64,000 bases of DNA from Psammoneis japonica (Eukaryota). Numbering within the stretch: the stretch's first letter is position 1; the number at the start of each line of letters is the position of its first letter. A program made the translations under genes and the position numbers. Below the pieces are notes generated by a model that had not been told where the DNA came from, did not search any database, and was given only the letters and a program-made list of their open reading frames with translations. This document shows, one piece after another, positions 8,253 to 56,759 of the stretch. Location of the stretch: the NCBI GenBank assembly GCA_008632985.1, contig QPGO01000291.1, forward strand, positions 1-64,000, in the 5' to 3' direction.

Positions 8253-8288
8253 CTTGAACTTGTCACCTTCTGTGGTGTGTGCACACAA

Positions 8289-19569: not shown

Positions 19570-22325
19570 CCTAATCTCATGTTTGCACACTACATTGACA
19601 CTTCTGCGCACTGTTGCTGAGAGAAATGCGCGGCGCTTCTCTCCTTCATGAGTCTTGTCAAGGCTTCGTGGCCTTCTGCGAGCTTGCACTTTTGTTGGTC
19701 CTTGCTTGGTGGCTTTCGCATGAACAGCCCTTCTCTGGTCTTTACTCTGGAGAGCACAACATGCGCCCAATTCTGAGTTTAGCTCCAAGAGTGTACAAAC
19801 AACTGCGGGACTCCACTCCCTTGCAGTTTGCGCCCTGCAGTGGCATTGTTGATGACAAACGGCAGCTGGGTTGCCTTCAGTTGGAAAGTGTGCCTTTGTT
19901 TGTCGCCTTCTTCTAAAATTAGGTTGGGCTTGGCAATGCAAGCCCTGAAAGTGTTTGTTTTGGGTTCAACTGAAAACTTTGTGGGGGTGATGCTTTTGTT
20001 GCAGTGTTCCAATGCAACGTGGTCCACCTGACTAGCAAGTGCAGCAGGAGTGCCAATGTTGTTGTCTAAAGTTGCCAGTCTTGGCTCCTGTCCTAGTTTG
20101 AGAACGACCTCATTGACAGTGGCTTGCGTTCCGTTTGCTTGACCTTTTGCTGCATTTTTGTTGAAAGGTGTCATGACTCTGCATCTTCTGTAAATGCGAA
20201 AGACTGGATCCATTCTTCCTGATTGCATGATGATGTCTCCTTCCCCACAGTTGTTCCAGAAGCTGTTGCAAACCGGAAACGGTTGGCAGAGTCTTGTGCC
20301 ATTCTGCACCTGCAAGTCATCACTGAAAATCAACATTGAGTCAAGGACGCTTCCATCTCTCCCAAGCAGTGTTTTTGCTCTTTTTTCAAATGGGCCAGTG
20401 TTCATTGCATCTCTGTCCTTGTTTGCGCACGCAGCACAGCGGAGGTCACTGGGCAGATCATCTTGGTTCTGGACCACTTGTTCGTTGATGTGCTCTGTGT
20501 CCTCAACTGCAATCTCACCAGTGCGGAATCTCTCAAGCAGTTGTCCCCATGCTGGATCGTTTCTAAACCTGTGCACGCCACGAAGCTCCACGTGGCAGTT
20601 GATCCACTCGTGATTTTCAGGACATGCATCTTTGTGCAGTGGTTTCACTCCTTTTCCGACTGGCTCCAGTTGCCTGAGGTCACCTGCGAAAACAATGTTG
20701 ACACCACCGTGCGGCTTGCTTGGTTCGCTTTTCAATGCTGTTAAATTCTTGTGGAGTTTTTTCAGCTCTCTCTTGCTTGCAAAAGATGTCTCGTCTGCCA
20801 CCAAAAGTCTCGTGTCTGACCATGTTTCAATTTGTTCTTCGGTTGTTTGCTTTTTTCTCATGAGGCATGCAACTCGGTGGATTGTGTCCCCTTTGAGAAC
20901 AGTCGTGGCCACTCCAGTCAGTGCAGTTGTTCTGATTGTGCTTGTTGTGAACGGCTGCTCGACAAGCGAGCAATGCTCTCCACCGCATTCCATGACGAGG
21001 TCTGTCATGGTTGATTTACCACTTCCACCTGCACCATGCAAAAAACACACAAGTTGCAACATTCTGCGTCTTTGCACTTCCACGAGTCTCTTCAATTGGC
21101 GAAGGTTTGTTGTGAAGTCATGTCTGCTGTTTCTTCTGTTGAGTTCATTGCCTGACGTCTCATCTTGAAGAGCATCTTGGTGGCAAGTGAGCACAAAGGT
21201 TCCTGCCAGAATTTCAAAGGCATGCTGCTGTTGCCTGTCCAGTCTTGCTTTCCCAGCCCAGTCTACAACACTTGCTGCAGATTTGTTTGCTTGACACACA
21301 TCAACATGTTCCTCCAAACCTGTCATGTCTTCAAATGACCTTCTTGTTCTTTGTGCTCTAGTCAGTGTCACTCGAACAATGTCATCTCTTGACAGAGTTC
21401 TGCTGTGGATGTCTTGTTCTGCTCCTTCATTCTGCTCCTCCTTGTCGGTGTCATCGTCGCCCTCTAGATTCTCAAAAAGTTGTCGTTCATCAACCTGGCT
21501 TTCCTCATTTGGTGGGTCAGTGTGCATGTCTGCCAAGCATTTGCAACCACCCATGTGTGGACCTTTCTGTCTTGCATGTTCACCACTCAAATGCGCAGGA
21601 ACAACTGCTTGGTCGCTCAACCCAATGTCATTGTCTTCTGGCTGCTCTGCCATTTCTTCCAAGAGTGCATCCAGCAGTTGGCCCTGAACGGCGCCTGAAA
21701 GACCTTCTTTCTCACCTGATTTGAGCTCTTCTCGTTTCCTTTTCCGTGACTGTGCGTCCAGTTCCTTGTGTGGGGCAACTTTGCGCATTTTACGCAATTC
21801 CATGCATTTGGGAAAACACGACTTCGTAACGTGCATGTGCTGGTTGTAAGCTGCGTCCGGCATGTGTGCCTCTGTTGTCCCCTGCGGACTGCTTTGCTGG
21901 CACTGCGCACACATTGCTTTTAGTTGATTCGCACGGTTGTCTGGATGGCAAGTCAGGCCAGGTGCACGATGTCGTGACTGCAAAAAGCTTTCTACAAACT
22001 CAACGTTTGTCCAGCACTTGGTGCAGTGACAACAACAAGCAAACATCCCGTTCTTTGACTGCTGGCCGTCTTTGTGCCTCAGGTTTCTCAGCTGTTGGTC
22101 GTCTGCTGCTTTCAGGGAGCTGCAGCACCATTTTGGCACTGTGCAGTCATGATCAAATGCTTCACAAAACGCGCTGGTGCTAAACTCTTCGCCAGAGATT
22201 AATCTGTGCTGCAGATCTTCTGAACTGTGTTGGCAAGGTGCTCAGCACCTTCGCATCGGATCTGTCTTGTTGGTGAATGCAGTTTCTCTCTTGCATTGTT
22301 GATCAATGTGAGCCAGATCTGCATG
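19570..22325 (-). pseudogene. Helitron RepHel, C-terminal part: end of Rep plus PIF1-family SF1B helicase
   Basis: HGAGGSGKST (I), TALTGVA (Ia), LVADETS (II), GGVNIVFAGDLRQLEPV (III), HRFRND (IV), ANGT, QLPF...KLQG (V), and NWAHVVLSRV (VI) after an in-frame TAA at 19779. Lower end approximate. Confidence 0.85.
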
Positions 22326-22706
22326 TGCAACATGCGTTGTCATGCACGCATTACATGTGTGTGTCTGTGTGTTAAATAAAAGCACATTTCAATCGCACGT
22401 CAATCGTGGGTTCGTACGAAGTACAGATCAGCCACACAGAAGTGATCGGATGTCGAGAATCGCAAATGCAATCGTACGATGATGTTGACATCTCATGTGT
22501 CAATGTCAATCGTATCCGGACAATCTGTCATCACGATCACATTCTCCGAAAGGCCTTTTGTCTGCAGGAGCAGTGCAAAAGGTTTGGGCCATTGAGAACC
22601 CGTTCGGAGAAACCCAAAATGATTGCGCAGAAACAATTCTCATAATTTTTTCACCTTTTGAACTTCGTTCTACTTTCGTTTACACTCGTTCTTCGAGCAC
22701 AGTGCA
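22326..22706 (+). repeat. 5' LTR of Gypsy-2
   Basis: Direct repeat of 27125-27505. Confidence 0.95.
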
Positions 22707-22742
22707 TTGTGCACACACACCACAGAAGGCAACAAGTTCAAG

Positions 22743-23897
22743 ATGAAGCTTTCACCTCATGCAGCCAACGCCAAAACTTCGTTGAGGCAGGAGAAAATCG
22801 TCCCTCAACCGCTGGAATCGAACTCTGAGCTGAAGAGCCTCAAACCAAGCCAGCACCTCAAGATGGAGCAACGTTTTCATCCCGAGAAGAAGGACAGCCG
22901 CACCCACACCATCAATGTTGAGTGCCACAAGAAACAAGGTGTCCCCAAGTTCATCGAATTTCTCAAGAGCTACGATCAACTTCCAGTGGGCCAGAACATC
23001 AGGAAGCAATCTGACAAGTTTCGTCTCATGCGCATGTTGCTCCAAGGAGACGCTCTACGTGCTTTCGAGAATGCGGCAGCGAACCTTGAAGACGAATCTG
23101 TGGAAGGAAGCTTCGAGAAATGCCTGCAACATCTCACGAGGCATGTGTTTCCCAAGAACGCACTTTTGGTGCAGAAACGTTATTTGCGTCGTGATCTCAA
23201 GAAGCCGGAGTCCATGAAAGCACGCGAAATTGCTGCTTGGGTCCAGGAAGTCAACGAAGACCTCAAGTTCCACCCTCCCTTTGGGAAGGAACAGAAGATC
23301 GAGGACGACGAGCTCAAGGACATCCTCTTCAACCTCGCACCTCGAAAGTGGCAGCGTCAGTCGACCGTCCAGGGTTTCGAAATTTTGAAACATGCCTGTG
23401 ACGAGTTGGTTGAGTTCTTGGAGCGCCCAGAGGTCGCAGAAGACACATTTGATGGCATTCATGCCAAGGCTGATGGCAGTGGCGGTGCTGCATCAAAAGC
23501 CAAGAGTGGTTCCCAACGTGGTTCCAAAAATGGTCACCAACATGGTGCCGAAAAATCTCAGTCCGAGAAGTGGTGCATTTCATGCGAGAAATCCACTCAC
23601 AACACGGACAAGTGCTGGTCGATCAAAAGACTTGCGAAAGAACGCCGTGGGAACTATGAACCCGACCCGAAACGGCGCCGTTCAAATGGCAATCGCACGT
23701 GGTCTCGTCGCGACAACGATGACGCCGCTCGCAAAGAAGAGTTGAATGCTGTGGCGATCCAAGCAGTTCAAAAAACACTCAAAGCGAGTTCTTCGAACAA
23801 TGACAAAAAACACAAGAGCAAAGATTGTGATTCTGATGCCCTTGACGAGGAAAATTGTCAGTTTGAAAAAATGACGCGCAGTGATTCTGAGGAATGA
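22743..23897 (+). CDS. gag: Gypsy-2 gag
   Basis: Open frame MKLSPH...SDSEE*, with a CxxCx4Hx4C knuckle (WCISCEKSTHNTDKC). Confidence 0.85.
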   Translation: MKLSPHAANAKTSLRQEKIVPQPLESNSELKSLKPSQHLKMEQRFHPEKKDSRTHTINVECHKKQGVPKFIEFLKSYDQLPVGQNIRKQSDKFRLMRMLLQGDALRAFENAAANLEDESVEGSFEKCLQHLTRHVFPKNALLVQKRYLRRDLKKPESMKAREIAAWVQEVNEDLKFHPPFGKEQKIEDDELKDILFNLAPRKWQRQSTVQGFEILKHACDELVEFLERPEVAEDTFDGIHAKADGSGGAASKAKSGSQRGSKNGHQHGAEKSQSEKWCISCEKSTHNTDKCWSIKRLAKERRGNYEPDPKRRRSNGNRTWSRRDNDDAARKEELNAVAIQAVQKTLKASSSNNDKKHKSKDCDSDALDEENCQFEKMTRSDSEE

Positions 23898-26800
23898 CTT
23901 GCACCGCAAGAGGAGTCTTGTGCTCTGCTGGACATTAGGAAGCCCAGAAAAAGGGCCAAAGCAATTCACACTAGTCCAGCAGTCGTCGCCTGTATGAACA
24001 CTTCATTGGGTAAGGCGAAAAACAAGCCTCTGCGCGTTCTCCTTGACAGCGGAACATCGTCATCCATAATTTTGCGCAAATTCACGCGGAAACTCAGAAC
24101 AAAAGCATCCGCCACCAAACTCTGGGAAACCAAAGGAGGGCTCTTCACGACTGACAGTCGATGTAAGATCCAATTCTCCTTGCCCGAATTTGACAAACAC
24201 AAGATGATTGAAACAACGGTGTGTGTTGATGGCTCCCCTTCTTCTTCGAGTCGTTATGACATGATCATGGGACGCGACTTAATGTCAAGTCTTGGGACAA
24301 TGTTGGACTTCTCGAATGAAGAGATTAAATGGGAAGATGCAACTGCTCCCATGAAGAATGTTGACACACTCTTCGATGCCGATGTTTTTAAGTTGATTGC
24401 CGATCATGTTGAGGAATCTCATGCAGTGATCAGTCTTAATGACAGGGTCAATCGGATCCTTGACTCAGACTGTCACGCTGCAAACCTCAACAATGTGACC
24501 GCAGCAGCCACTCATCTAACTCCTGAAGAGCAGAAGCAGCTGAACTTCCTCTTAAAAAGATTTGAAAACCTTTTCGATGGTTCTCCAGGCAAATGGAATG
24601 GGAAACCGGTGGATTTAAAGTTGAAATCGGGCGTGAGTCCGCATCATGCCAAACCATTTCCCGCACCACAAGCCTTGGAGGCGACTGCTCGTAAGGAGGT
24701 TGAAAGACCATGCAAGTTGAAGGTCTCAAGAAAAATAAATTGTTCTGAATGGGCGGCTCCAACCTTTGTTCAACCCAAGAAAAATGGCAGAGTTCGGTTC
24801 TCACCCGACTTTCGTGAGCTAAATGAGAGGTTAATTCGCACTCCGTTTCCTCTGCCCAATGTTCAGGATGTGCCACAGAAGCTCGAAGGCTTCATGCATG
24901 CAACGTCCCTAGATTTAAACATGGGATGCCATCACATCGAATTGACGCCACATGCACGTCGCTTGTGCACGATCGTCATGCCTTGGGGCAAACATGAGTG
25001 CTGTGGACTCCCGATGGGAATCTGTGGAGCTCCAGACATTTTCCAAGAGCACATGAGTGAACTCATGGCAGGTCTGGAGTTCGTCAGAACTTGTGTTGAC
25101 GATGTGTTGTGTCTTGCAAAAGGTGATTTTCAAGACCACCTCAAGAAGCTTGAAACAGTGTTCTTGCGCCTAGAACAAGCCGGATTGAAGGTCAACGCCG
25201 AGAAGTCCTTTTTCGCTAAACCCGAAGTGGACTATCTAGGCTTTCATGTCACCCGCAAGGGCATCAGTCCGATTCCAAAAAAAGTAGAAGCGATTCACGC
25301 GATCGCAACTCCTAAAACTCGCAAGGAATTGCGACGCTTTGTCGGTGTGATCAACTGCTGTCGAGACATGTGGCCTCGACGATCTCATGTTTTAGCTCCT
25401 TTGGCCAAACTCACTTCTGCCCAAGTGAAGTGGCAATGGACCGAAACAGAACAAAAAGCCTTCGAAAATGTGAAGCGCATCATCTCCAAAGATGCACCAT
25501 CATCACACCCGAATTTTAATGCACCCTTTGAGACACACACCGATGCCAGCAATTCTCAATTGGGGGTGGTCATTGCTCAGAAAAACCGACCAATTGCCTT
25601 CTACAGCCGCAAGCTGAGTGGAGCGCAGACGCATTGTGCTGCAACGGAAAAAGAACTGTTGTCCACAGTGGAGACATTAAAAGAGTTCCGCAATGTGCTG
25701 TTTGGCCAACAGACAAATGTGCACACGGATCACAAAAATCTCACACACAAAAATTTCACAACGGACAGAGTCATGCATTGGCGTCTAACAACAGAAGAAC
25801 ACAGTCCCAAAATGACATGCCTTGAGGGCAAGGCAAACATTGTTGCAGATGCGACCAGCCGACTCACCATGAAGAAAATAGAACCCATGGAAACCCTCAG
25901 CACAGAAGAGCTGGCTGAAAAGGTCCCACCAAAATCCTGCGACAATGTCTTTCCGTTAAATTGCAAAGTTCTTGATTGTGAACAAAAACGGGACAAAGAC
26001 ATTCTCTCCCAATTGTCAAATGAGACGTTTCATACGAAGACTTTTCGTGGAGGCGAGCGAGACCGGTTGCTCACATGTCACAAGGACAAAATTGTCATCC
26101 CGAGGACGTTACAAAAGGCAGTGATGGATTGGTGTCATGCGCACCTTCTTCACCCTGGCACAAATCGAACAGAAGAAACAATCTCACAACACCTGTGGTG
26201 GTCCACCTTACGTGAAGACATACGAAAACACGTGTTGAGATGTGAGACGTGCCAAAAATTCAAAAAGAAACACAAGAAATGTGGACATTTGCCTCCCAAG
26301 TGCGCAGAATCCGCACCATGGGAACGACTGTGTGTGGACCTCATTGGGCCATACAAAATGCATCGTAAGGGAAAGAAAAAACCCCCAGTCCTGAAATGTT
26401 CAACTGTGATCGATCCAGCAACCGGATGGTTTGAAGTTGTGGAAATCCCAAACGAGGAGTCCACAACTGCAGCTGGACTGCTAGAACGAACATGGTCAAG
26501 TGGACATCCTTGGCCATCGTCAATCACACGTGACCGTGGAAGTGAGTTCATCGGACACCAATTTAGAGAAATGGTGCAAGATGATTGTGGCATTAAAGTC
26601 AAGCCTATAACTACACGAAATCCACAAGCAAACGCAATTATTGAACGCGTACATCAAGCACTGGGGAACATGCTCCGTACATTTGATTTACAACATACAC
26701 CTCTAGATACTGAGGATCCTTTCGCTGGAATACTATCAGCGGTAGCGTTTGCGGTACGTTCTACGTATCATACCACTACGCAAGCTACACCAGGACAACT

Positions 26801-27098
26801 AGTCTTCAATAGAGACATGATATTTAACGTCCAACATGTCGCAGACTGGAAATTAATCCAGCAGCGAAAACAAGAAATCATAAATAAAAATAACGCTCGA
26901 GAGAATGCTCGACGTACTCCTTACACGTACAGAGTAGGAGAAAAGATACTACTCGAGAAAGACTCGCAAAAATTAGAACAGCCCTATGTTGGACCGTATG
27001 TAATAACAACGGTACATACTAATGGCACAGTACAGATCAAACGCGGTAACGTTATTGACACTGTCAATATTCGTCGAATAATACCGTTTAACGACTGA
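23898..27098 (+). CDS. pol: Gypsy-2 pol (PR-RT-RNase H-IN), in frame with gag after a single TGA; RT motif mutated to CVDD
   Basis: LLDSG, WAAPTF, CVDDVL, TDAS...FYSRKL, HLLHPG...CETC zinc finger, VDLIGP / DRGSEF / NAIIER integrase, GPY motif. Confidence 0.93.
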   Translation, partial: LAPQEESCALLDIRKPRKRAKAIHTSPAVVACMNTSLGKAKNKPLRVLLDSGTSSSIILRKFTRKLRTKASATKLWETKGGLFTTDSRCKIQFSLPEFDKHKMIETTVCVDGSPSSSSRYDMIMGRDLMSSLGTMLDFSNEEIKWEDATAPMKNVDTLFDADVFKLIADHVEESHAVISLNDRVNRILDSDCHAANLNNVTAAATHLTPEEQKQLNFLLKRFENLFDGSPGKWNGKPVDLKLKSGVSPHHAKPFPAPQALEATARKEVERPCKLKVSRKINCSEWAAPTFVQPKKNGRVRFSPDFRELNERLIRTPFPLPNVQDVPQKLEGFMHATSLDLNMGCHHIELTPHARRLCTIVMPWGKHECCGLPMGICGAPDIFQEHMSELMAGLEFVRTCVDDVLCLAKGDFQDHLKKLETVFLRLEQAGLKVNAEKSFFAKPEVDYLGFHVTRKGISPIPKKVEAIHAIATPKTRKELRRFVGVINCCRDMWPRRSHVLAPLAKLTSAQVKWQWTETEQKAFENVKRIISKDAPSSHPNFNAPFETHTDASNSQLGVVIAQKNRPIAFYSRKLSGAQTHCAATEKELLSTVETLKEFRNVLFGQQTNVHTDHKNLTHKNFTTDRVMHWRLTTEEHSPKMTCLEGKANIVADATSRLTMKKIEPMETLSTEELAEKVPPKSCDNVFPLNCKVLDCEQKRDKDILSQLSNETFHTKTFRGGERDRLLTCHKDKIVIPRTLQKAVMDWCHAHLLHPGTNRTEETISQHLWWSTLREDIRKHVLRCETCQKFKKKHKKCGHLPPKCAESAPWERLCVDLIGPYKMHRKGKKKPPVLKCSTVIDPATGWFEVVEIPNEESTTAAGLLERTWSSGHPWPSSITRDRGSEFIGHQFREMVQDDCGIKVKPITTRNPQANAIIERVHQALGNMLRTFDLQHTPLDTEDPFAGILSAVAFAVRSTYHTTTQATPGQLVFNRDMIFNVQHVADWKLIQQRKQEIINKNNARENARRTPYTYRVGEKILLEKDSQKLEQPYVGPYVITTVHTNGTVQIKRGNVIDTVNIRRIIPFND

Positions 27099-27124
27099 CT
27101 CTAATGTGCAATTAGGGAGGCGAA

Positions 27125-27505
27125 TGCAATATGCGTTGTCATGTACGTATTATATATGTATATCTATATATTAAATAAAAGTATATTTCAATCGTACGTC
27201 AATCGTGGGTTCGTACGAAGTACAGATCAGTCACACAGAAGTGATCGGATGTCGAGAATCGCAAATGCGATCGTACGATGATGTTGACATCTTATGTGTC
27301 AATGTCAATCGTATCCGGACAATCTGTCGTCACGATCATATTCTCCGAAAGGCCTTTTGTCTGTAGGAGCAGTACAAAAGGTTTAGGCTGTTGAGAACCC
27401 GTTCGGAGAAACCCAAAATGATTGCGCAGAAACAATTCTCACAATTTTTTCACCTTTTGAACTTCGTTCTACTTTCGTTTACACTCGTTCTTCGAGCACG
27501 GTGCA
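27125..27505 (+). repeat. 3' LTR of Gypsy-2 (least mutated LTR in the window)
   Basis: Retains the TA-rich U3 tract tatatatgtatatctatatatt. Confidence 0.95.
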
Positions 27506-27769: not shown

Positions 27770-28375
27770 GACCGGTGCAGTCCGATCACCGTGAAGGCTG
27801 CGATCAGTGCCATCCAATCACCGCAGCTCTGTGTGTTTTCTCACCACCTGTGTGATCAGGTTGCTGTGAGCACTGTGACTGGTGTCGTCCAGTCACCGCA
27901 GTGGATTTGTCCAGTTGATTGACGAACTGCATCGGCGCCATCCGATCACCACAGCGCTGTGTCGTTTTCTCACAACCTGTGCAATCAGGTCGCTGTGAGC
28001 ACTGCGACTGGTGTCATCCAGTCACCACAGCTGAGTGGATCAGTTGATTGACGAACTGCATCGGTGCTGTCCAATCACCGCAGCGCTGTGTCGTTTTCTC
28101 TCAACCTGTGCAATCAGGTCGCTGTGAGCACTGCGACTGGTGTTGTCCAGTCACCGCAGCTGAGTGGATTGGTTGATTGACAAACTGCATCGGTGCCATC
28201 CGATCACCGCAGTGCTGTGTTGTGTTCTCACAACCTGTGCGATCAGGTCTCTGTGAGAGCTGCGACTGGTGTCGTCCAGTCACCGCAGCTGAGCTTGTGC
28301 GTTGTCTCACAACCTGCGTTGCCAGGTCACTGTGAGAACTGAGAACTGCGATCGGTGTGGCCCGATCGCCGCAGT
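27770..28375. repeat. Minisatellite, 129-bp unit, about 4.5 copies, with internal hairpins
   Basis: ATCAGGT anchor at 27855, 27984, 28113 and 28242. Units contain GACTGG-N6-CCAGTC and ATCGG-N6-CCGAT inverted repeats. Confidence 0.85.
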
Positions 28376-28640: not shown

Positions 28641-28951
28641 TTGTGGTGGGTGCAGCATTGCGCAAATTCTGCAGAATTGCGCTTTGGCGAGTCGCGGGGC
28701 AGTTGAGTTGGTCGTGTGGCAATGACAATGCGACTGACGTCATTCGGGTTTCCAACGCACGCGCAAATCCTCCAAATGGGTGATGGGCCCACTGGTGCCA
28801 GCAATGACGTCGACTCGTTTAGATTTCGTGCACAATGGCCGTGCGCGAATTTTTCAAATGCGGCGTGCTAACTCCACCTGTGCACCAAGCAATGTAGAAA
28901 GTCATTTTAAACAGACATCAAGACGCGTTGATTTGTTAAGACGCGTTCAGG

Positions 28952-31900
28952 TGCAGCATGCGACTGTTGCACACATGTTTGTGATTGTGTGTCATTTGTG
29001 TGTCAATCGCACCACAGTCGTGGATGCGTGCAAAGGACAGAACGATCACACAGAGTTGATCGGATGTCGAGAATTGCAAATACGATCGATTGACGATGTT
29101 GACATCTTGCGTGTCAATGGCAATCGCACCCGGACAATCTGTTGTCACGAATGTGTTCTCCGAAAGGCCTTTTGTCTGTAGAAGCAGCACAGAAGCTTTA
29201 GGCCATTGAGAACTCGTTCGGAGAAACCAAAAATCACAGAGCAAAATTCAATCTTATAATTTTCACTTTTCGAACTTCGTTCTACTTTCGTTTGCACTCG
29301 TTCTTCGAGCACAGTGCATTGTGTGTGCACACCACAGAAGGTAAAAAGCACGGAAAATGAAAATTTCAACTAATGTGCCTTTGTAAATTCTTCTATGAAC
29401 AGGAGCGAATCGCATCAGTTCTGCTGGAAACGATTTCCGAGCGGAAGAAGCTCAATCCGAGCAGCACCTCAAGATGGAACGCTGTTTTTCGTCTGCCAAA
29501 CAAGAGGATTCGCTCTAATGCGGTCTATTCCAAGCACCCAAGGATCAAGGGCTCTCAAGCACACCGCATTGTCAAAAAATCTACACCAATTCATGGTTGC
29601 AGAGAATGCAAGTTCCGAGTCGATCAGATCCGAGAAATGCGTCTACCATGCAAGGAGAGACTGTTGGAGAGTTTTTGGAGACCGAATCAACGAGCCTCGA
29701 GTCCAAGAGCAAGATGGAACCGTTGGAAAGTACCTCAAGAGTCTCGTGTCTCATGTCTTTCCAAGAATTGCACTTCAGAATCAGAGTTGTTATTTTCAAG
29801 ACGATCTGAAGAAAACAGAGCTGCTTGACAGCAAGAAAGCCTCTGTTAGACCCAAGAGGTCAATGATGAGAGTCCATGCGACCCTCAGATGGATTCTAAG
29901 TCGAATCTAGCGGGAAACCGAGCGCTGATTTATCAGCTGTCACTCGCACCGCAAGGATGGCAGCATCAGTCTACTGTCCAAAACAATCAACTGTTGCAAC
30001 TCATCCTTGATGAGCTGATTAAGTTTTGAGTCATCTAAAGGTCGTTCATGACGTCCGTGACGAAAAAACATATCAACTCAGGCTCTGATGGTGCAGTTGG
30101 TTCCAAAATAAAAAAGGTTCCAAATTTGGTTCCAAAAATGGTCTCCTGCATGGTGCCAGAACAATCCAAAGTGAATGCAAGGTCTCGTCTTTGAAAAAAG
30201 AATGCCCACATCACGGATTGAAGCCATTCTAAAAATGAACTAGCAAAAGAGTGCAAGGGTGACTCTGAAAGAGACCCAAAAATGCGCCGTTCAAATGGCA
30301 ATCGCACGCGGTCGCGTCGCGATAACGAAAATGCCGCTCGCAAAAAAAGAGATGAACGTCATGATTGATCAGGCGGTTCAAAAAATGCTCAAAGCGAGTT
30401 CCTTGAACAAAGAAAAAGAGCATGAGGGCAAAGAATCAGATTCTGACACCCTCAGTGAAGAAAAATGCCAATTTGATCGGATGATCCAGACTGAATCCGA
30501 AGAATAATTTTGGTCCATTCACGAATTACATGCTTTGCTGGATGTTAGGAAGCCTAGAAAAAAGGCAGAAATAATTCACACTAGTCCAGGAGTCATCATT
30601 TATATGAGTGCTTCCTTGGGAAAGGAGAAAAAAAAAAAGCATCTACGTGTTCCTGTCGATGACGGAACATCGTCAACCACAATTTTGCGCAAATTCGTGC
30701 GAAAGTTGAGAACACAAGAATCCGCCACCAAAAACTTGGGAAACCAAGGGTGAGCTCTTTACGACTGACAATAAACACCGAATTCAGTTCTCACTGTGCG
30801 AAATTTAAGGCATGCTGACATGCAAACAGCATGTGTTGAAAACACCAAATTTTCTTCAGGTTCAAATGACATGACCATGGGACGCGACTTAATGTCCAGT
30901 CCTGCAAGTCACATTGGACTGCGCAAATGAAGAAATCTAATGGGAAGAAGCAATTGCCTTATGAAGAATGTTCACACACTCTTCGATGCCGATGTTTTCA
31001 AGCTGAAAACCGATCACATTGAAAAATGTGACGCCGTGAATAGAGTCAATGACGGAACCAATGGACCTCGACTCACATCATCACGCCATCGATCTTAATC
31101 AAGTGACAACTGCGGCGATGCATCTAACCCAAATGAACACAACCAACTCAATCTTCTTCTTAAGAGGTTGAAATCGTTTTGAAAAGTTCCTCAGACGAAT
31201 GTGTGGGAAGCACCAGCGGATCTCATCGTGGAAAATCTGACGCGATTCCACGACGCGTGAGAACCTTCTCCTGTCACAGTCTTTGGAGGCGTCCAATCAA
31301 AAGGAGTTTGACCCACCATGAAAGATTGAAGTCTTAAGAATGAAATTGCTCTGAACAAGTCGCTCTGAGACTCATTGTCTGAAGAAAACAGGTCGAGTTC
31401 AACCGCACCCGACACTCAGAAGCTCAGTGTGAGGTTCATGCAGGTGGTGCATCCTTTGCCCAACATTCAGGAAATGCCATTGAAGCAAGAACGTTTCATG
31501 TGTGTAATCTATTTGATTCAAACATGGAATGCCACCATGTCAAATAAAAAAAGCACACGTCGTGCTCACACGAAAATCATGCCGTGGGGAGAAAATGAGC
31601 ACTGTGGACTTCCAATGAGAATCCACAGAGCCCCAGACATTTTTGTGCAACACTTGAGTGAACTCACAACAGGTTTGAAGTTGTCAGAACGACTGCATGT
31701 GATCGTTTGTGCCTGACAAAAGTAACTTCAAAATGTCACCTGTACAAGTGACAGCTTAATGCGGCATTCAAACGACTAGAACAGTCGCTTAGAAGGTTAA
31801 CAACAAAAGTCCTTCACCATTTAACTTGAAACAAACTATCAAGACTTCCGTGCGTAACGACATGCAATCGATTACAAAGAAAATGGAGGCGATTCAAGCA

Positions 31901-33678
31901 ATCGCAACACGAGAAAAACGTAAAGAACACTGCGACATCTCGTTGTCATGCGTTGCCATTGTCGAGACATGTAGTCTCAACAATCTCCTGTACAATGCTA
32001 GCCAAATTCACCTCAACAAAGGTCAAACGGCAAAAGTGCAAGTACGGAACGAAAAGTCTCCGAAAATATGGAGCGCATCAAATCAAAAACTATGTTGTCA
32101 TCATACACGGATTTCAACATCACACGTTACAACGGAAAAAAGAACTTCTGTCCATAGTGAAAACACTCATAAAATTCCGAAATGTGCTGTTTGGCCAACA
32201 GATTTATACACACACGGATCACAAGACACAACGGACAAAGTCATGCGTTGACAACTTCAGTCCCGAATTAGAATGCAACGAGGGCAAGGCGAACATCGTC
32301 GCGATGGACGCGATCAGCCGACTCACCATAGAAAATTGAATCCTACGACAATGTCCTGCCGTTAAAACGGGATAAAGACATTCCCTCCAAATTGTCGGAC
32401 GCGACACATCATACGAACACTTTTCGTGGAGGCGAGCGAGATCGAAAAATGCTCATGTCACAAGGACAAAATCGCCTTTTTAAAGGACGATTTAGGAAAA
32501 AACAGTGACAGATTGGCGTGCATTATACACACCCACTTCACACTGGCAAAAGACAATCTCACAACACCCGCGCGGTTGTGTTGTACAATGTACGAGGCAA
32601 GACATTAAAATGTGCATCATGTCGACACACGAGATGTGCCAAAGATCTAGAAAAAGAAAAGAAAAATGGACATTTGTCCACTCAGTGCACGAAACCAGTG
32701 CCTTCAGAATGACAAAATGACACCGGCATGTCAGAAAGAAACGTCCAAATGACGATTAAAATCCAACTGATAGATGGTTGAAGTGCAAAAAAAAAAAATC
32801 CACAATGGAATTCATGACCATCACAGGATTGATTGTCAAGACGAAATGGTCACAATGTCTTTGACCATCGTTTGTTGTTGCTTGTGAAACGTGGTGGTGC
32901 AGCAGAGCAACATGGCACACAAAGTAAGCCCGCCAAACCACATGAAATCCACAAGCAAGTGAGTGAACGCCACAATTAAGAGTGCACATTAAGCACTGGG
33001 CACGATGCCATGTACAATCGACATCAGGAAAAACACTTGCTCCAGGACAATTAGTCCTTGTGTTCATGTCAACAAGAACGTCAATGAGAATGCTCGACGT
33101 AACACTACACACACACACACCAAGTGAGAAACAAACAATGTCACTCTCAAAAGACATTCGGAAATTGGAGCGGCCCTGTGTTGCCCGTGCAAAACAACAA
33201 CAGTCATTGCCAATGGCACAATGCAGTGAAAGTGGAGACATTGTTGACACTGTCGATGTCCGTCGAATGATCCACTTGCAAATGACTCTAATGTGCAATT
33301 AGGGAGGCGAGTGCAGCATGCGACTGTCATGCACACATTTGTGATCATACATTGTTCACACGTCAATCGCACCACAGTCGTGGATGCGTGCAAAGGACAG
33401 AACGATCACACAGAGTTGATCGGATGTCGAGAATTGCAAATACGATCGATTGACGATGTTGACATCTCACGTGTCAATGGCAATCGTATCCGGACAATCT
33501 GTTGTCACGAACACATTCTCCGAAAGGCCTTTTGTCTGTAGAAGCAGTGCAGAAGCTTTGGGCCATTGAGAACTCGTTCGGAGAAACCAAAAATCACAGA
33601 GCAAAATTCAATCTTATAATTTTCACTTTTCGAACTTCGTTCTACTTTCGTTTACACTCGTTCTTCGAGCACAGTGCA
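28952..33678 (+). mobile_element. Ty3/Gypsy copy 3: related subfamily, internally decayed and non-autonomous
   Basis: 367-bp LTRs 28952-29318 and 33312-33678, 4-bp TSD CAGG (28948-28951, 33679-33682), PPT AGGGAGGCGAG. Internal fragments (KMLKASS, DDGTSSTTILRKF, MPWGENEHCGLPM, FRNVLFGQQIYTHTDHK) are colinear with Gypsy-2 but full of indels. Confidence 0.92.
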
Positions 33679-33764
33679 CAGGCGGGAAAATCCGTTTTGA
33701 AACTAAGCCTGCTTCTCATCGTCATCGTCCTTGTGCACCCGTGCAATTCGAGTGCACAAGCTGG

Positions 33765-34297
33765 CACGGCACGCAATGCACTTCTGCGCGTGAACTCGCA
33801 CCAAGATTGCCGTGGGATGATCCTCCCTCCACGGACCCAAAAATGGCACGACAACACTTCCGTCATTGTTTTGAAACACACTTCACCTTGAGACACACCA
33901 AGCGTGGGGGCTTGGGACGTGCAGCTCGCAGCCCGACAAAAAGCAAATGCTTCTTGCGATTGGGTTTTGACCCAACTCCCCTGGAGTCCGCTGGTCCCTG
34001 TCAACAGAGTTTTGCTTTGGGTGCTGTTGAGGAACGGAAAGCAAGTGCTTTTCGCGATCAGGTTTTGACCCCACTCTCCTGGAGTCCGCCGGTCCCTGTC
34101 AACAGAGTTTTGCTTTGGGTGCTGTTGAGGCACAGAACAGCGTTCGTGAGACGGCAACATCAACCCTGTGTGCCACGGGTTCAACCAGATGTCGCGTTTC
34201 CAAACCAAACTGTAAGTTTGCACAAAATGGGTGAGTTTACCGTCGCGCCCTCCATGCGCGCGAATTTTTCAAATGCGGCGTGCTAACTCTACCTGTG
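33765..34297 (-). mobile_element. Putative short non-autonomous derivative of the Helitron
   Basis: 34258-34297 matches 28843-28882 at 39/40 nt. 33765-33790 resembles 18896-18916. Contains a ~98-bp tandem duplication at 33939-34130. Confidence 0.5.
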
Positions 34298-34329: not shown

Positions 34330-34868
34330 TTCGTTTAGTCGTGGCGCCAGAACCCCGGGTGCGGCACCCGGGTTTTTATTTAATTTTTTTAATACGGAAA
34401 TTATGCATTCGACCAAGAAATTGATTTTTTCATACGGAGCACTAATATTTTCGGCTACTTTGTTCGGCATTACCAACACTCTTTCGATATAACATAACGC
34501 CACCCTCTTATACTCTGTGTAGTTCTGTAGATTTCTCAATAGAAAACCAACGGCAAAGTGTGCACTCTACAAGAGATACAGCTGTCACCAGAAATAGGGC
34601 GTGGCGCCCGGGTTTTTCATTTTTGGATATATCAACCTCATTTTGATCTTCAATTATTGAAGTAAGAGTACATATATGAGGCCCGAAATGATTGTAAACA
34701 ATCGTGTTGACATCTTATCGATTCAACGGACGCATGTGTCATTTGTCAACGGCCATTGTTCCGTATTAAAAACAGTAATTTCTTGGTCGAATGCATAATT
34801 TCCTTATTAAAAAAATTAAAAAAAACCCGGGTGCCGCACCCGGGGTTCTGGCGCCACGACTAAACGAA
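34330..34868. mobile_element. MITE/foldback element with ~110-bp terminal inverted repeats
   Basis: ttcgtttagtcgtggcgccagaaccccgggtgcggcacccggg...tgcattcgaccaagaaatt at left and its reverse complement ending at 34868. AT-rich, non-coding interior. No clear TSD. Confidence 0.85.
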
Positions 34869-37593: not shown

Positions 37594-40500
37594 ATGAGAC
37601 TCTGGTCTCCTACAATACTGATATCAACCTGTCTCTTAGGATCTTCTGGCGCAGTCCCCCATGTCGGACGTAATCGAGAGGATAGCAAGAACGAGTTTCG
37701 CTATGAAGAATCCAGCTTGATCGACGAAGACGAAAGCCAGTACTGGATGCGGCTCCTTCAAATATCGAGTCAGAGTATTACGCCACCTCCCTCACCACCT
37801 CCAACACCAGATCCTACTCCATCACCCACGCCAGGACCAACGCCGTCTCCGACACCTGGGCCTACACCTGCACCAACCCCGGATCCGACACCAGGACCTA
37901 CACCTGCTCCATCGCCTGGCCCAACTCCAGCACCAACCACACCTGCTCCAACGCCGGATCCGACACCAGGACCTACACCTGCTCCTACGCCAGAGCCGAC
38001 ACCAGGGCCTACACCTGCTCCCAACCACCTGCTCCTACGCCTGAGCCGACACCAGGGCCTACACCTGCTCCAACACCAGGACCTACACCTGCTCCTACGC
38101 CTGAGCCGACGCCTGGGCCTACACCCGCTCCAACTCCAGGACCTACACCTGCTCCTACGCCTGAGACGACACCAGGGCCTACACCCGCTCCAACACCAGG
38201 ACCTACACCTGCTCCTACGCCTGGGCCTACACCCGCTCCAACACCAGGACCTACACCTGTTCCTACGCCTGAGCCGACACCAGGGCCTACACCTGCTCCA
38301 ACACCAGGACCTACACCTGCTCCTACGCCAGAGCCGACACCAGGCCCCACACCTGATCCAACACCGGGACCTACACCTGCTCCTACGCCGCAACCGACAC
38401 CAGGCCCCACACCTGATCCAACACCGGGACCTACACCTGCTCCTACGCCGCAACCGACACCAGGCCCCACACCCGCTCCAACACCAGGACCTACACCTGC
38501 TCCTACGCCTGAGCCGACACCAGGGCCTACACCTGCTCCAACACCAGGACCTACACCTGATCCTACGCCGGAGCCGACGCCTGGGCCTACACCCGCTCCA
38601 ACTCCAGGACCTACACCTGTTCCTACACCTGAGCCGACACCAGGGCCTACACCTGCTCCAACACCAGGACCTACACCTGATCCTACGCCGGAGCCGACGC
38701 CTGGGCCTACACCCGCTCCAACTCCAGTACCTACACCTGCTCCTACGCCAGAGCCTACACCAGGACCTACACCTGCTCCTACGCCTGATCCGACGCCTGG
38801 GCCTACACCCGCTCCAACTCCAGGACCTACACCTGCTCCTACGCCAGAGCCGACACCAGGCCCCACACCTGATCCAACGCCAGGACCTACACCTGTTCCC
38901 ACGCCTGAGCCGACGCCTGGGCCTACACCCGCTCCAACACCAGGACCTACACCTGTTCCTACGCCTGAGCCGACACCAGGGCCTACACCTGCTCCAACAC
39001 CAGGACCTACACCTGCTCCTACGCCTGAGCCGACGCCTGGGCCTACACCCGCTCCCACTCCAGTACCTACACCTGCTCCTACGCCAGAGCCGACACCAGG
39101 ACCTACGCCTGCGCCTACACCTGATCCAACACCTGGACCTACACCTGAGCCTACGCCTGAGCCGACCCCTGGACCTACACCCGCTCCAACACCAGGACCT
39201 ACACCTGTTCCTACGCCAGAGCCGACACCAGGGCCTACACCTGCTCCAACACCAGGACCTACACCTGCTCCTACGCCAGAGCCAACACCAGGCCCCACAC
39301 CTGATCCAACACCGGGACCTACACCTGCTCCTACGCCGCAACCGACACCAGGCCCCACACCTGCTCCAACACCAGGACCTACACCTGCTCCTACGCCAGA
39401 GCCGACACCAGGCCCCACACCTGATCCAACACCGGGACCTACACCTGCTCCTACGCCGCAACCGACACCAGGCCCCACACCTGATCCAACACCGGGACCT
39501 ACACCTGCTCCTACGCCGCAACCGACACCAGGCCCCACACCCGCTCCAACACCAGGACCTACACCTGTTCCTACGCCTGAGCCGACACCAGGGCCTACAC
39601 CTGCTCCAACACCAGGACCTACACCTGATCCTGCGCCGGAGCCGACGCCTGGGCCTACACCCGCTCCAACTCCAGTACCTACACCTGCTCCAACGCCGGA
39701 TCCGACACCAGGACCTACACCTGCTCCTACGCCAGAGCCGACACCAGGGCCTACACCTGCTCCTACGCCTGAGCCGACACCAGGGCCTACACCTGCTCCA
39801 ACACCAGGACCTACACCTGCTCCTACGCCTGAGCCGACGCCTGGGCCTACACCCGCTCCAACTCCAGTACCTACACCTGCTCCTACGCCAGAGCCGACAC
39901 CAGGACCTACGCCTGCGCCTACACCTGATCCAACTCCAGGACCCACACCTGATCCAACACCTGGACCTACACCTGATCCTACGCCTGAGCCGACCCCTGG
40001 ACCTACACCAGCTCCAACACCAGGACCTACACCTGTTCCTACGCCTGAGCCGACACCAGGGCCCACACCTGCTCCTACGCCGGAGCCGACACCTGGGCCT
40101 ACACCTGCACCGACACCACAGCCCACTGGGGAGTGCGACGTTGAAGTATGTGAAATGATATTTTGTCCTGGAAAAGGCTCTCTCGCACCAAGCTAACACA
40201 CCCCTTCTTTTTTGTTTAAACAGGTGGACATTGAGTGTGAAGTTGCGAATGAAGCCGACGACGTGGCAGCTGGTACAGACTGCGATGATATCCCTACAAT
40301 CGATGGCAACTGCGATGCAGGTAGCGAATCGCTCACGCGACTCACATTCGAGTATAACTACGCTACATGTGATGCGAGTGACAACAGTCAACAGGACGAC
40401 GGTACCTTTGATTGCGTTGATACAGGTATAAACGAAGAGTTTTGCCGTAACTCTGAGCTTGTTACTGTCACCTGCGATGGAGGCGGTTTCTCCTTTGAAG

Positions 40501-43117
40501 ACGACAGCATCCGACCAGACAGCTCGTTCCGCTTCTTTACGCTTGAGGCGAACGAGGGTGCTACGCTCCCAGAGACCATGACTTGCACTATCTCAGTCGG
40601 TAACACGTTTTGCCAAGAGGTGGTTTTTGATACTTCAGGACAGGTAGACTTGAGACTCCAAGACAAGTTTGGCAGCATTACACTAAAGAGCTGTGAAGAT
40701 GAAGACGGCAACGAGAAGGATTGCTTCTTGGATCTCAAATACACATACCCTGTTACGAATGAAGGTGAAACTACATTTGAAATTCTTGAACTTTTGCGGA
40801 CCCGCAACTCAGATACGGATGACTTGATTGACCTTGTCAATCCTACAATCCTTCAGCCGGGAGACGTTGTGAATCCTATGGAAACTCAAGTGTTGGACCG
40901 CTGCATCGAGGATTGTTACGAGACAATCATTACTGTTACGGCCGAAGACGAAGAAGGAACCATTTGCGAAGACAGCGACTCTGACGAATTCTGCATTCAA
41001 GTGCCTTGTGATGTGGACGTAAGTTGAGGGGTCAATAATTCTTTTTTTCTTTCATTGCCTGTGGACATCTCTGACCTTACCTTTATTCATTCATCAAAAA
41101 CCATTAGGTGTCATTGGATTGTATCCTTAGAGAAAGTGGTGAACCCTGCGAAGACATTACACCTCCCCCAGCGAGCTGTACCGGTGGCGAATGTATTGAT
41201 CGCTTGACCATTGCCTGGATTGATATTCTCTGTACTGAGGATGATAATGATCAACCGAACTCCCTTTGTACAGACTTCCCCGAGAATGATATTCCTGATG
41301 GTGGCTCGGCACTGATCGTTTGTCAAGATGCCACGAGGGTGTACTGCAATTGTACAGTTACTCTCGGCAATACCATCACAATTGGTGGTGTGAACGGTAC
41401 TTGTCTCCCATCGGATATCAACTGCACCATCATCGATGTGGCGTCGGGCCTTACTGCTGTCAATCAAGAGAACATCTTTGATGCATCCGGTACAAATCCA
41501 AACGCGCCCATAAGTCTCGACGACACGTTCGGTGCCTTGCAGATTAAAGGATGCAGGAGCCAGGATGGCGAAATAGATTCCCAGTGTCTTGTTGATGTTA
41601 ATTACACATACATTATCGCCAATCCGGGTAATGTTTCGTTGGATGTCACTGAGCTTGAACGTACCTGCAACGGAGAAGAGAAAGATCTTCTGCCACCTGA
41701 AGGCATTACGGTTCCTCCGAGGGAGCTACGTGGTGTCATTGAACCCGGCACGATCGACAGTTGCACGCCCCAGTGTATCAATAAGACTGCGACTGTTGTC
41801 GCTGAAGCTGATGACGGAAGCATCTGCGAAGACACTGATCGTCTTGACTTTTGCATTCCGGAGCGTCCTCCGACTCCAATGCCGACACCGGCACCCTCAA
41901 TGGCTCCGACTCCAATGCCAACACCGGCACCCTCAATGGCAGGAAAGAAGGGTTCTAAAGCTAAAGCTCCAGGTCCAGCTCCAGGTCCAGCTCCGACTCC
42001 GCCGGTGACTGTACCAACAAATACAGCGGCACCTTCAATGGCGGGGAAGAAGGGTGCCAAAACCAAAAGCAAGGCTCCTGCACCTCCGACTCCAGCAGCT
42101 CCGACTCCGCCAGTGACTGTACCAGCAAATACACTGGCACCCTCAATGGCAGGGAAGAAGGGTTCCAAAAGTAAAAGCAAGGCAGGGACACCTGATGCAC
42201 CTGATGAACCTGATGCACCTCCGACTCCAGCAAATACGCTGGCACCCTCAATGACAGGGAAGAAGGGTGCCACAAGCAAAGGTAAGGGAGGGACACCTGA
42301 TGCACCCGATGAACCTGATATAACTGCGACTCCAGCCAATACACCTGCACCCTCGATGGCAGGAAAGAGGGATGCCACAAGCAAAGGCAAGGGAGGGACA
42401 CCTGATGAACCTGATGAACCTGATGCACCTCCGACTCCAGCAAATACACTGGCACCCTCAATGGCAGGAAAGAAGGGTGGAAAAGGCAAGGGAGGGACAC
42501 CTGATGCACCCGATGAACCTGATATAACTGCGACTCCAGCCAATACACCTGCACCCTCGATGGCAGGAAAGAGGGATGCCACAAGCAAAGGCAAGGGAGG
42601 GACACCTGATGAACCTGATGAACCTGATGCACCTCCGACTCCAGCAAATACACTGGCACCCTCAATGGCAGGAAAGAAGGGTGGAAAAGGCAAGGGAGGG
42701 ACACCTGATGCACCCGATGAACCTGATATAACTGCGACTCCAGCCAATACACCTGCACCCTCGATGGCAGGAAAGAGGGATGCCACAAGCAAAGGCAAGG
42801 GAGGGACACCTGATGAACCTGATGAACCTGATGCACCTCCGACTCCAGCAAATACACTGGCACCCTCAATGGCAGGAAAGAAGGGTGGAAAAGGCAAGGG
42901 AGGGACACCTGATGCACCCGATGAACCTGATATAACTGCGACTCCAGCCAATACACCTGCACCCTCGATGGCAGGAAAGAGGGATGCCACAAGCAAAGGC
43001 AAGGGAGGGACACCTGATGAACCTGATGAACCTGATGCACCTCCGACTCCAGCAAATACACTGGCACCCTCAATGGCAGGAAAGAAGGGTGGAAAAGGCA
43101 AGGGAGGGACAAGATGA
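37594..43117 (+). CDS. Large secreted Pro/Thr-rich glycoprotein with two Cys-rich domains and Lys/Gly-rich C-terminal repeats (cell-wall/adhesion-type); exons 37594-40145, 40224-41018, 41108-43117; frameshift near 38020
   Basis: Signal peptide [23 protein letters not shown] motif, (PTPx)n tract, introns GTATGT...CAG and GTAAGT...TAG both splitting a CDV(E/D)|V motif, two homologous Cys-rich domains, SMAGKKG repeats. Confidence 0.85.
37780..40120 (+). repeat. Coding minisatellite, 12-bp unit encoding PTP[G/A/D/E/Q/V]
   Basis: cctacacctgct / ccaacaccagga / ccgacaccaggg units in higher-order arrays. Confidence 0.95.
42290..43110 (+). repeat. Coding tandem repeat, 204-bp (68-aa) unit x4, apparently identical copies
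   Basis: gggacacctgatgcacccgatgaacctgatataact at 42290, 42494, 42698 and 42902. Confidence 0.92.
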
Positions 43118-43327
43118 GCAGAGCCCCACCGTTGAATGTACGTCACAAAATCAATTTATAGGAATTAAGATGAAGTTAATCCACACACGTAAAAATTTAA
43201 CTTTGACATGGAAATCTTCTACGAGCTGATGCAAAACTGGTTCTCATAGTTTGCCATGATTGCAATCAATCTAAATGGTTGGAATGCCACAGGGCTCAAA
43301 AGGCCCAGCATTTTTCCGGGGGAGGCA

Positions 43328-45095: not shown

Positions 45096-45569
45096 TGGTG
45101 CAGTCAGTCCTCATCTTTCGAAAATGATTGTGGTCTTGGCCTTGTAAACTTAGAACTGGAAACTGCAATGTGGATTTGCTCGAAACAAACTGCAGCAATT
45201 CTGTTCTGCAAGGCAAGTCCTGTTTGAAAACCTTGCAATGACCTTTGATGCAATGTCGCCCATCACGGCATGGAGAGGCAGGAGTTCACCTGCCGAAATG
45301 GCAGACAAAGTCAACAACACGAAAAAACATTCTTCATTCCAGACACTCATGCAAAGGTGGAAGATGCTCTTCTGGAAGATTGAAACACACACAAGCAAGC
45401 ATGAGCCACATGAGCCATTTGGTCTTCCTCTTCAGGAAAATGCATTGGAAGCTCACTGAGTGGAAGCCCGGGTTGCAACATGAACAAGCAATCACACTCT
45501 TCTTCATCGGGAATGTGAAGACTTGGCAGGCATCCACTTGCGCTTGTAGAGGCAGTCTCCGCTGAAATG

Positions 45570-56750: not shown

Positions 56751-56759
56751 TGCCATTGG

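Follow-up and report, generated by a model that had tools for sequence, protein, structure and literature searches.

TpA-specific A:T to G:C hypermutation in retrotransposons, repeats and foreign DNA within a 64-kb window of the diatom Psammoneis japonica

A single window of 64 kb of Psammoneis japonica DNA (contig QPGO01000291.1) was analysed around Gypsy-3 (G3), a long terminal repeat (LTR) retrotransposon whose two LTRs carry TG and CA reciprocally at the same sites. In chromosomal DNA of mobile, repeated or foreign origin in this window, A:T pairs were replaced by G:C specifically at TpA, on either strand, once per site and with a preference for T-A-C. These marks are best explained, with a probability of roughly 0.7, by targeted hypermutation of duplex 5'-TA-3' that acts at the DNA level after integration. 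It would have affected the related elements Gypsy-1 (G1), Gypsy-2 (G2) and G3 together with much of the non-genic DNA of the window, and would be of the kind reported for the chlorarachniophyte Bigelowiella natans (10.64898/2026.01.13.699255).

Reciprocal dinucleotides in paired LTRs

Three related LTR elements were found in the window by self-BLAST. Their coordinates, and those of the parts used in the comparisons, are as follows:

3511-8668, minus strand: G1, hypermutated along its whole length; LTRs 3511-3889 and 8286-8668; target-site duplication GTGC
22326-27505, plus strand: G2; LTRs 22326-22706 and 27125-27505; target-site duplication CATG
22662-23894 and 23898-27095, plus strand: gag and pol of G2, separated by an in-frame TGA (1066 codons of pol open)
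28952-33678, plus strand: G3, a degenerate Ty3/Gypsy element (self-BLAST)
28952-29318, plus strand: 5' LTR of G3, with TG...CA ends (LTR alignment)
33312-33678, plus strand: 3' LTR of G3 (LTR alignment); 30 transitions relative to the 5' LTR, with 12 TG/CA swaps
28948-28951: left copy of the G3 target-site duplication CAGG
33679-33682: right copy of the G3 target-site duplication CAGG

All three target duplications are perfect over their 4 bp, and each element is thus one insertion event. The features of a Ty3/Gypsy carrier were observed, namely TG...CA LTR ends, a target-site duplication, a polypurine tract (the purine tract AGGGAGGCGA precedes the 3' LTRs) and the order reverse transcriptase (RT), RNase H, integrase. 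Pfam domains in G2 pol are arranged as RVT_1, RT_RNaseH, Integrase_H2C2 (the integrase zinc domain) and rve (the integrase core), by which the family was assigned to Ty3/Gypsy. In both G1 and G2, gag and pol share one frame with a single TGA between them (23895-23897 in G2; 7096-7098 in G1), which suggests that pol is expressed by stop-codon readthrough. The pol similarity of G3 is weak (tblastn, 31372-32709), and its alignment with G2 contains 602 transversions and 602 gap columns; judged from these comparisons, G3 is a distant, degenerate member of the family. A 40-nt sequence occurs twice around G3 (97.5% alike), at 28843-28882, about 70 nt upstream, and at 34258-34297, about 580 nt downstream, and the element may have inserted inside or beside another repeated unit.

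The boundaries 28952..33678 given for G3 in a preliminary description proved exact, with CAGG directly outside the LTRs. The sequences quoted there were recovered at their places: tgttgcacacatgtttgtgattgtgtgtcatttgtgtg in the 5' LTR from 28966, tgtcatgcacacatttgtgatcatacattgttcacacg in the 3' LTR from 33326, gaatgtgttctcc at 29150 opposite gaacacattctcc at 33510, and the Gypsy-2 strings in an alignment of all six LTRs. For G3 an ungapped LTR alignment was adopted, which follows that earlier reading and needs no indels. It contains 30 substitutions in 368 columns, all of them transitions (0 transversions, 0 indels), and 29 of the 30 fall inside aligned pyrimidine-purine (Y-R) dinucleotides. With a gapped local alignment instead, 24 substitutions, again all transitions, and 4 gap columns were obtained. 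The claimed reciprocity of TG and CA was borne out at 12 swap sites, with TG in the 5' LTR at nine and in the 3' LTR at three. The other mismatched sites are 3 TA/TG, 1 TA/CA and 1 TG/CG; 22 CpG and 5 TpA are unchanged in both LTRs. When 30 random transitions were placed on the 5' LTR (20,000 trials), a mean of 0.46 swaps and a maximum of 5 were produced, against the 12 observed.

The other two LTR pairs behave in the same manner. In G2, all 25 substitutions in 381 columns are transitions and 24 lie in Y-R dinucleotides; in G1, 45 of 48 substitutions are transitions and 40 lie in Y-R dinucleotides, in an alignment that took in 3 flank bases. Compared from end to end, G1 and G2 are separated by 459 transitions and 41 transversions, with TG opposite CA at 72 sites, TA opposite TG or CA at 114, and CG opposite TG or CA at 118.

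LTR divergence amounts to 8.15% in G3 and 6.56% in G2, and outside Y-R dinucleotides to 0.27% and 0.26%, respectively. The expectation that hypermutation inflates LTR-divergence dating is thereby given a size, about 30-fold for both elements, and such dating is invalid in genomes with hypermutation of this type.

Ancestral state, boundary within G2 and mutation spectrum

The direction of change was read from the protein sequence. G2 pol was aligned with 60 of 120 listed homologues, and a Tyr column was counted as conserved when Tyr was present in at least 80% of the homologues. Of the 26 columns so defined, 12 read Cys in G2, six read His and one reads Phe; every other residue class was changed in at most 34% of its columns. 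In G1, Tyr survives at 2 of 24 readable conserved columns, and the catalytic tyrosine of the YxDD motif is C in G2 and H in G1. Residues intact in both elements include 7 of 7 conserved Cys, 9 of 10 His, 15 of 16 Gln and 16 of 19 Trp, and no stop codon was created (1066 + 411 open codons). Because Tyr is lost while Cys, His, Gln and Trp are kept, TG and CA are the end states; TA is not a product, nor has it been spared. No Tyr to Arg change, as expected of a double hit, occurs at the 26 columns, so a mutated site is immune to a second hit.

The swap sites themselves agree with this polarity. For the 47 G1/G2 swaps within pol, the homologue residues favour ancestral TA at 25 and CG at 1, with 21 ambiguous. 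When the 12 swap sites of G3 were looked up in the four other LTRs (48 cells), TA was found in 11 cells, CG in 2, CA in 16 and TG in 8, and 11 cells could not be aligned; the third states are thus not mostly CG, and TA as the ancestor, as proposed in the preliminary description, was retained. One G3 site (alignment column 223) may be CpG-derived, and one G3 swap site is CG in both G1 LTRs.

G2 is divided by a sharp boundary between 26525 and 26564:

22326-26525, plus strand: hypermutated tract of G2; TA kept at 54 sites, demonstrably hit at 86
26564-27505, plus strand: spared 3' part of G2 including the 3' LTR (about 0.9 kb); TA kept at 79 sites, hit at 3

The two sides differ with p 7e-20 (Fisher). 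In the hypermutated tract Tyr is kept at 4 of 21 conserved columns, and the spared part agrees with the consensus of the homologues at 79 of 89 conserved columns, compared with 63 of 89 in G1. Left of the boundary the Tyr content of G2 pol is 0.5%, with a (C+H)/Y ratio of 16.5; to the right the values are 2.6% and 1.4. Such a boundary marks either the end of a targeted tract or a junction left by gene conversion.

The spared 3' part of G2 was used as the ancestor for the mutation spectrum and was compared with G1 over 845 columns. Ninety-eight substitutions in G1 were polarised in this way (72 A>G, 23 C>T and 3 transversions). A>G was found at 65 of 144 adenines in TpA and at 7 of 352 elsewhere, so that 65 of all 72 A>G changes are at TpA; C>T was found at 18 of 108 cytosines in CpG and at 5 of 234 elsewhere. 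About 90% of TA dinucleotides and about one third of CpG have been hit once. A slower decay of CpG to TpG or CpA therefore acts beside the change at TpA, about 5 times more slowly and into the same TG/CA sink, and is probably caused by cytosine methylation. Repair of the polymerase-eta type, with its WA hotspot, was considered as a source of the A>G changes and was set aside in view of the contrast between AA (3 of 135) and TA (65 of 144).

The base that follows the mutated A matters. With both copies pooled, TAC was hit at 50 of 98 sites, TAA at 27 of 115, TAT at 21 of 76 and TAG at 15 of 77 (p 7e-6). H-TA-C sites became TG in 22 cases and CA in 4, G-TA-D sites TG in 2 and CA in 13 (p 1e-5); the struck strand is thus largely set by the flanking bases. 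Neither strand of the elements is favoured as a whole: TG and CA products number 93:76 in G1 and 35:54 in G2, and the strong bias to the transcribed strand that would have spoken for another origin was not seen. Runs of products on one strand occur at chance level (93 observed against 84.7 expected in G1; 48 against 43.5 in G2), and processive single-strand events were ruled out by this test.

Read support was taken from one public run in coded form (57% of sampled words), probably of the assembly's own sample; read-derived contigs were compared over G2. Among the family copies so sampled, 96 of 100 variable places are transitions. G2 has CA or TG where other copies have TA at 15 of 40 listed places, and TA where other copies have TG or CA at 8 places. 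Summed read depth is about 4,000-10,000 over the internal part of G2 and higher over the 3' LTR; the flank contig has a depth of 61 (about 60x), and the last bin, largely unique flank, sums to 117. The depth ratio was read as roughly 100 family copies, although summed depth is not a copy number. Read contigs from the unique flank agree with the assembly; of 3547 contigs placed over the G2 stretch, 680 are at least 99% alike. A long-read base-calling artefact at modified bases was set aside in view of the matching read contigs and of the coherent Tyr to Cys/His polarity.

These data bear on a group of explanations in which TA is not the source of the swaps, namely that the TG/CA pairs descend from ancestral CpG, that TA was made by C>T at CpA as in fungal repeat-induced point mutation (RIP), or that the pattern is a sequencing artefact. 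CpG decay is real, as the 18 of 108 CpG cytosines, the Arg to His or Cys changes of a pseudogene described below and the CG in both G1 LTRs at one swap site demonstrate. It is present only as a minor process, however: 22 CpG are intact in both G3 LTRs, in which the TA-derived sites are near saturation, and TA exceeds CG as the ancestral state by 25:1 in the pol swaps and by 11:2 in the third states. A RIP-like change would turn Trp and Gln codons into stops; there are none, both kinds of column are intact, and C>T at CpA was found at 2 of 103 sites. An artefact is countered by the roughly 60x read contigs of the unique flank. As a group, these explanations are extremely unlikely.

The same marks outside the LTR elements

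The following stretches outside the three elements carry the same marks:

27798-28293: 129-nt tandem repeat, 3.8 copies, with CA/TG/CG swaps among the copies
33936-34137: 98-nt tandem repeat with one TG/CA swap
47615-47725 and 47952-48062: dispersed 111-nt repeat pair; 10 of 11 variable columns are transition-only, with several TG/CA swaps
43001-63000: desert of TA and CG; rho(TA) 0.01-0.09 from 44 kb on and 0.20 in the first kb
43445-44945, plus strand: bacterial-type TRAP transporter pseudogene, frameshifted, with DctQ and DctM pieces in three frames (Pfam)
19779-22241, minus strand: PIF1-like helicase open reading frame (ORF), 820 codons open (Pfam, PDB), rho(TA) 0.13

The copies of a 57-nt tandem repeat are likewise separated by TG/CA swaps. 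In the desert (43-63 kb), rho(CG) is 0.02-0.50 and rho(TG/CA) 1.65-2.05, and TG and CA are present in similar numbers (2367:2277). Of its 61 ORFs scanned with Pfam, only the three TRAP fragments gave domain matches; the remainder gave nothing, or, in two ORFs, three weak matches under the curated Pfam cut-offs. A sequence search of the PDB with the DctM fragment gave no match. The closest relative of the TRAP pseudogene is a Rhizobiaceae permease (71% identity), and the pseudogene is probably an old horizontal acquisition. Of 8 Tyr positions in that permease none is conserved in the pseudogene (6 Y>C), and of 16 Arg positions only one is (7 R>H, 5 R>C). Both the TpA and the CpG process thus act, with the same polarity, on foreign DNA that is not a retroelement. 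The PIF1-like ORF contains 0.2% Tyr and has a (C+H)/Y ratio of 33.5, compared with 2.2-2.7% and 1.3-1.7 in host proteins. It is a dead but open frame, and perhaps part of a Helitron-like or viral insertion.

Over the window as a whole rho(TA) is 0.29. It is 0.06-0.36 over G1, G2, G3, the PIF1-like ORF and 27.5-29 kb, 0.42-0.55 in host genes, and 0.71 at 34.9-37.8 kb, between depleted blocks. The confinement of the depletion to foreign and mobile DNA was observed within this one window. Depletion also reaches about 1.5 kb past the 3' end of G1 (2001-3510) into DNA without a recognised domain, with rho(TA) of 0.22 for 2001-3000 and of 0.07 for the 3001-4000 bin, half of which lies inside G1; either spreading or another decayed element accounts for it. 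An element at 34330-34868 resembles a miniature inverted-repeat transposable element (MITE); its terminal inverted repeats measure about 113 nt and are 93.8% alike. It lies between depleted blocks, has a rho(TA) of 0.82 and is not hypermutated.

A general neutral bias of TpA towards TpG and CpA, with regional differences owed to age and selection only, is suggested by the low TpA of the whole window, host genes included, and by the fact that the most depleted DNA looks oldest. We consider this quite improbable. Within 40 bp of one insertion the TA sites of G2 shift from 86 hit against 54 kept to 3 against 79, and the TA-rich MITE-like element and the 34.9-37.8 kb stretch stand between depleted blocks. 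The G2 and G3 LTRs carry 24 and 29 Y-R changes, respectively, against one other change each, a rate ratio far above ordinary context effects. In B. natans, according to the available text of the preprint, the baseline spectrum is AT-biased and hypermutation is regional (10.64898/2026.01.13.699255). Targeting is thus indicated by the G2 boundary together with the unmutated neighbours.

The timing of the change was argued in the preliminary description from the LTR pairs, which were held to speak against RNA editing and RT error. Against editing of cDNA, however, the LTR pairs alone are not sufficient evidence. An adenine analogue of APOBEC3 restriction, acting during reverse transcription, would place the LTR differences before the end of integration; the plus-strand strong-stop DNA would be exposed single-stranded at another time than the minus strand of the 3' LTR, so that one cycle could split the LTRs. 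G3 leans in the predicted manner (5' LTR, TG 11:CA 4; 3' LTR, TG 4:CA 9; p 0.056), but the lean is gone when the three elements are pooled (25:21 against 12:19; p 0.25). The same changes are present in the tandem repeats, the dispersed pair, the bacterial-type pseudogene and the 20-kb desert, none of which are retroelement products, and it is this DNA that does exclude an origin in cDNA. Moreover, what is spared in G2 is the 3' LTR and the sequence immediately before it, which is not where the minus strand is least exposed. Of the traits of APOBEC-like editing (strand-biased, clustered, before integration, limited to retroelements), none was found: strand runs are absent, the pooled lean gives p 0.25, and DNA other than retroelements is affected. 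Editing of cDNA is thus very improbable.

A further rival is that transposon transcripts underwent A-to-I editing and were then reverse-transcribed. In its favour, RNA-editing adenosine deaminases prefer U before the edited A (10.64898/2026.01.13.699255, Discussion). Under this rival, A>G would be limited to the sense strand and the two LTRs would be identical. The two strands are hit to a similar extent, the LTR pairs differ, and repeats of a non-transcribed type and the pseudogene are affected, so that such an origin is scarcely credible. The claim that the changes arose on DNA after integration is supported by the discordance of LTRs within perfect target duplications, by the swaps in non-LTR repeats and the decay of the TRAP pseudogene, and by the parallel of mutations seen de novo in B. 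natans.

Proposed mechanism, related systems and significance

In the mechanism proposed, a TadA/ADAT-type adenine deaminase would be directed to silenced DNA and would convert adenine to inosine, preferably in T-A-C; inosine would be read as G at the following replication. One A:T pair of a TA would thus become G:C, giving TG when the adenine of the top strand is changed and CA when that of the bottom strand is changed. Since the product would no longer be TA, each site would be hit once, and TG and CA would be stable end states. Repeat copies would be hit separately, leaving TG in one LTR and CA in the other within a single insertion. The activity would act on chromosomal DNA after integration, in tracts over transposons, repeats and foreign DNA, and genes would be spared. 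That the chemistry is adenine deamination by an enzyme of this type stands at about even odds. Bacterial TadA acts naturally on the U-A-C in the anticodon loop of tRNA-Arg, a motif that agrees with the T-A-C preference.

The mutated base could equally be thymine. Oxidation of T at TpA in silenced DNA by a TET/JBP-type enzyme, to a base like 5-hydroxymethyluracil (5hmU) or one further oxidised, would cause mispairing with G and T>C, with the same targeting and the same outcome. A>G on one strand and T>C on the other are not separated by the data, and a maintained modification of the duplex would suit the symmetry and the single hit, the lack of strand runs and the analogy with decay at methyl-CpG. 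According to the accessible part of one source (PMC11572971), the thymine that 5hmU replaces in dinoflagellates is preferentially that of TA and TC; the base sits in repeats and silences transposons. TC contexts were not hit in the window, however. The motif would have to read G-T-A, which fits no known enzyme, and read as T-A-C it agrees with the tRNA substrate of TadA. No such modified base is known to us in diatoms, although no search was aimed at it, nor, to our knowledge, has a strong mutagenicity of 5hmU paired with A been established. An origin in thymine is considered unlikely, though it is the main alternative.

Several points weigh against targeted, post-integration hypermutation of duplex TA as set out above. 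The process is known here from its end states alone; no enzyme, modified base or de novo event was seen. A single-strand deaminase is expected to leave strand-coordinated runs; none were seen in the runs test, and a mark placed symmetrically on the duplex accounts for their absence no less well than such an enzyme. Fifteen Tyr sites were hit in G1 as well as in G2, and 12 of them carry the same product (p 0.035); part of the mutation load may have been inherited from an already mutated source copy; common products at these sites are likewise predicted by the flank-set choice of strand. Gene conversion, instead of the limit of a targeted tract, could account for the abrupt boundary in G2, and background divergence is 2.6% to its left and 1.56% to its right (p 0.06). 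The read support, if from the assembly's own sample as is probable, is not independent.

The literature on TpA or A-to-G hypermutation of transposons, diatoms included, was searched, and only the B. natans preprint (10.64898/2026.01.13.699255) was found. According to its available text, 230 of 231 de novo mutations in two integrated viral regions of mutation-accumulation lines were A>G or T>C; all of these were on TpA, at about 1000 times the baseline rate and in some lines only. The B. natans genome contains clusters of low TpA with high CpA+TpG that are enriched for reverse-transcriptase and DDE domains, and an ADAT2-like enzyme was proposed as a candidate. The likeness to the present window extends over several traits. 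Changes are almost only A>G or T>C there, and here 72 of 98 are A>G, the rest being mainly C>T at CpG, counted as a separate process. In both, the change is restricted to TpA, yields TpG or CpA according to strand, is chromosomal and regional, and is aimed at foreign-derived DNA; in both, low TpA with high CpA+TpG is the long-term signature, clustered in 1-kb windows in B. natans.

There are also differences. The host here is a diatom, hence a stramenopile, and B. natans is a rhizarian; the targets here are LTR retrotransposons, simple repeats and a bacterial-type pseudogene, and there integrated viral DNA. Depletion in the present window reaches near saturation (rho 0.01-0.09), compared with 0.45 in the B. 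natans viral region. CpG decay accompanies the process here, and the available text of the preprint makes no mention of CpG, LTR or Gypsy. The TAC preference, the flank-set strand choice, the single-hit rule and the boundary within an element, as observed here, are absent from its main text, although its supplements may hold flank data. In B. natans the mutations were observed de novo; here they were deduced from discordant LTRs, perfect target duplications and repeats that are not retroelements. Taken together, the comparison supports TpA-only hypermutation in this diatom window as a process of the same kind in a distant lineage.

Four better-known systems share individual traits with it. Fungal RIP is likewise a transition-only, chromosomal hypermutation of repeated or foreign DNA that inactivates transposons and inflates divergence; it changes C to T mainly at CpA, makes TpA and stops and lowers GC, whereas here TpA is destroyed, no stops arise, ORFs stay open and GC rises. 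Decay of methyl-CpG also strikes a self-complementary Y-R dinucleotide of silenced DNA on either strand, with one hit that gives TG or CA, but in the window the main target is TpA, the change is A:T to G:C, and it is about 5 times faster than CpG decay in the same DNA. Editing by APOBEC3, too, leaves the imprint of a host deaminase fossilised in LTR elements; it converts C to U on minus-strand cDNA and yields strand-biased, clustered G>A before integration, as described in the accessible part of one source (e.g. PMC4866542). The changes here concern adenine or thymine, fall on both strands, are unclustered, follow integration and occur outside retroelements as well. A-to-I editing of RNA by ADAR and ADAT shares the A>G change and the preference for a 5' U or T, and TAC recalls the TadA substrate. 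Unlike in ADAR and ADAT editing, the substrate here is DNA, given that both strands are hit, LTR pairs are discordant and repeats other than retroelements are affected.

With the diatom window included, a recently reported process would no longer be confined to one chlorarachniophyte but would occur in diatoms as well. These are a major group amenable to genetics, in which the enzyme and its targeting become testable. The mechanism is constrained by the T-A-C preference, the single hit per site and the flank-set strand choice. Because stop codons are never created, dead elements keep kilobase-long ORFs that are liable to be annotated as genes, as exemplified by G2 pol (1066 codons) and the PIF1-like ORF (820 codons, 0.2% Tyr); such frames can be flagged simply by a composition poor in Tyr and rich in Cys and His. 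It may be suggested, tentatively and with some doubt, that diatoms possess an active sequence-specific DNA-editing defence, a mirror image of RIP, that is directed, in tracts with sharp limits, at transposons, repeats and DNA gained by horizontal transfer. On either strand it would convert the A of T-A-C, and less readily of T-A-D, to G until no TpA is left, and it would leave long, open but dead frames. If this is true, a natural adenine editor of double-stranded chromosomal DNA exists, and the presence of the defence in a stramenopile and a rhizarian means that it is ancient or was acquired repeatedly.

Further features of the window are as follows:

14140-15612: host gene for pyruvate-dehydrogenase E2; the named relatives are all from diatoms (57-71% identity)
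37831-40118: GC-rich (64%) tandem array of 12/60-nt units in a long open frame; the consensus unit starts CCAGGACCTACACCTGCTCCAACA
40197-43117: two ORFs with a DUF7467 domain and coding repeats of 105/204 nt, following the array

Over the tandem array and the DUF7467 stretch (37831-43117), rho(TA) is 1.4-1.5.

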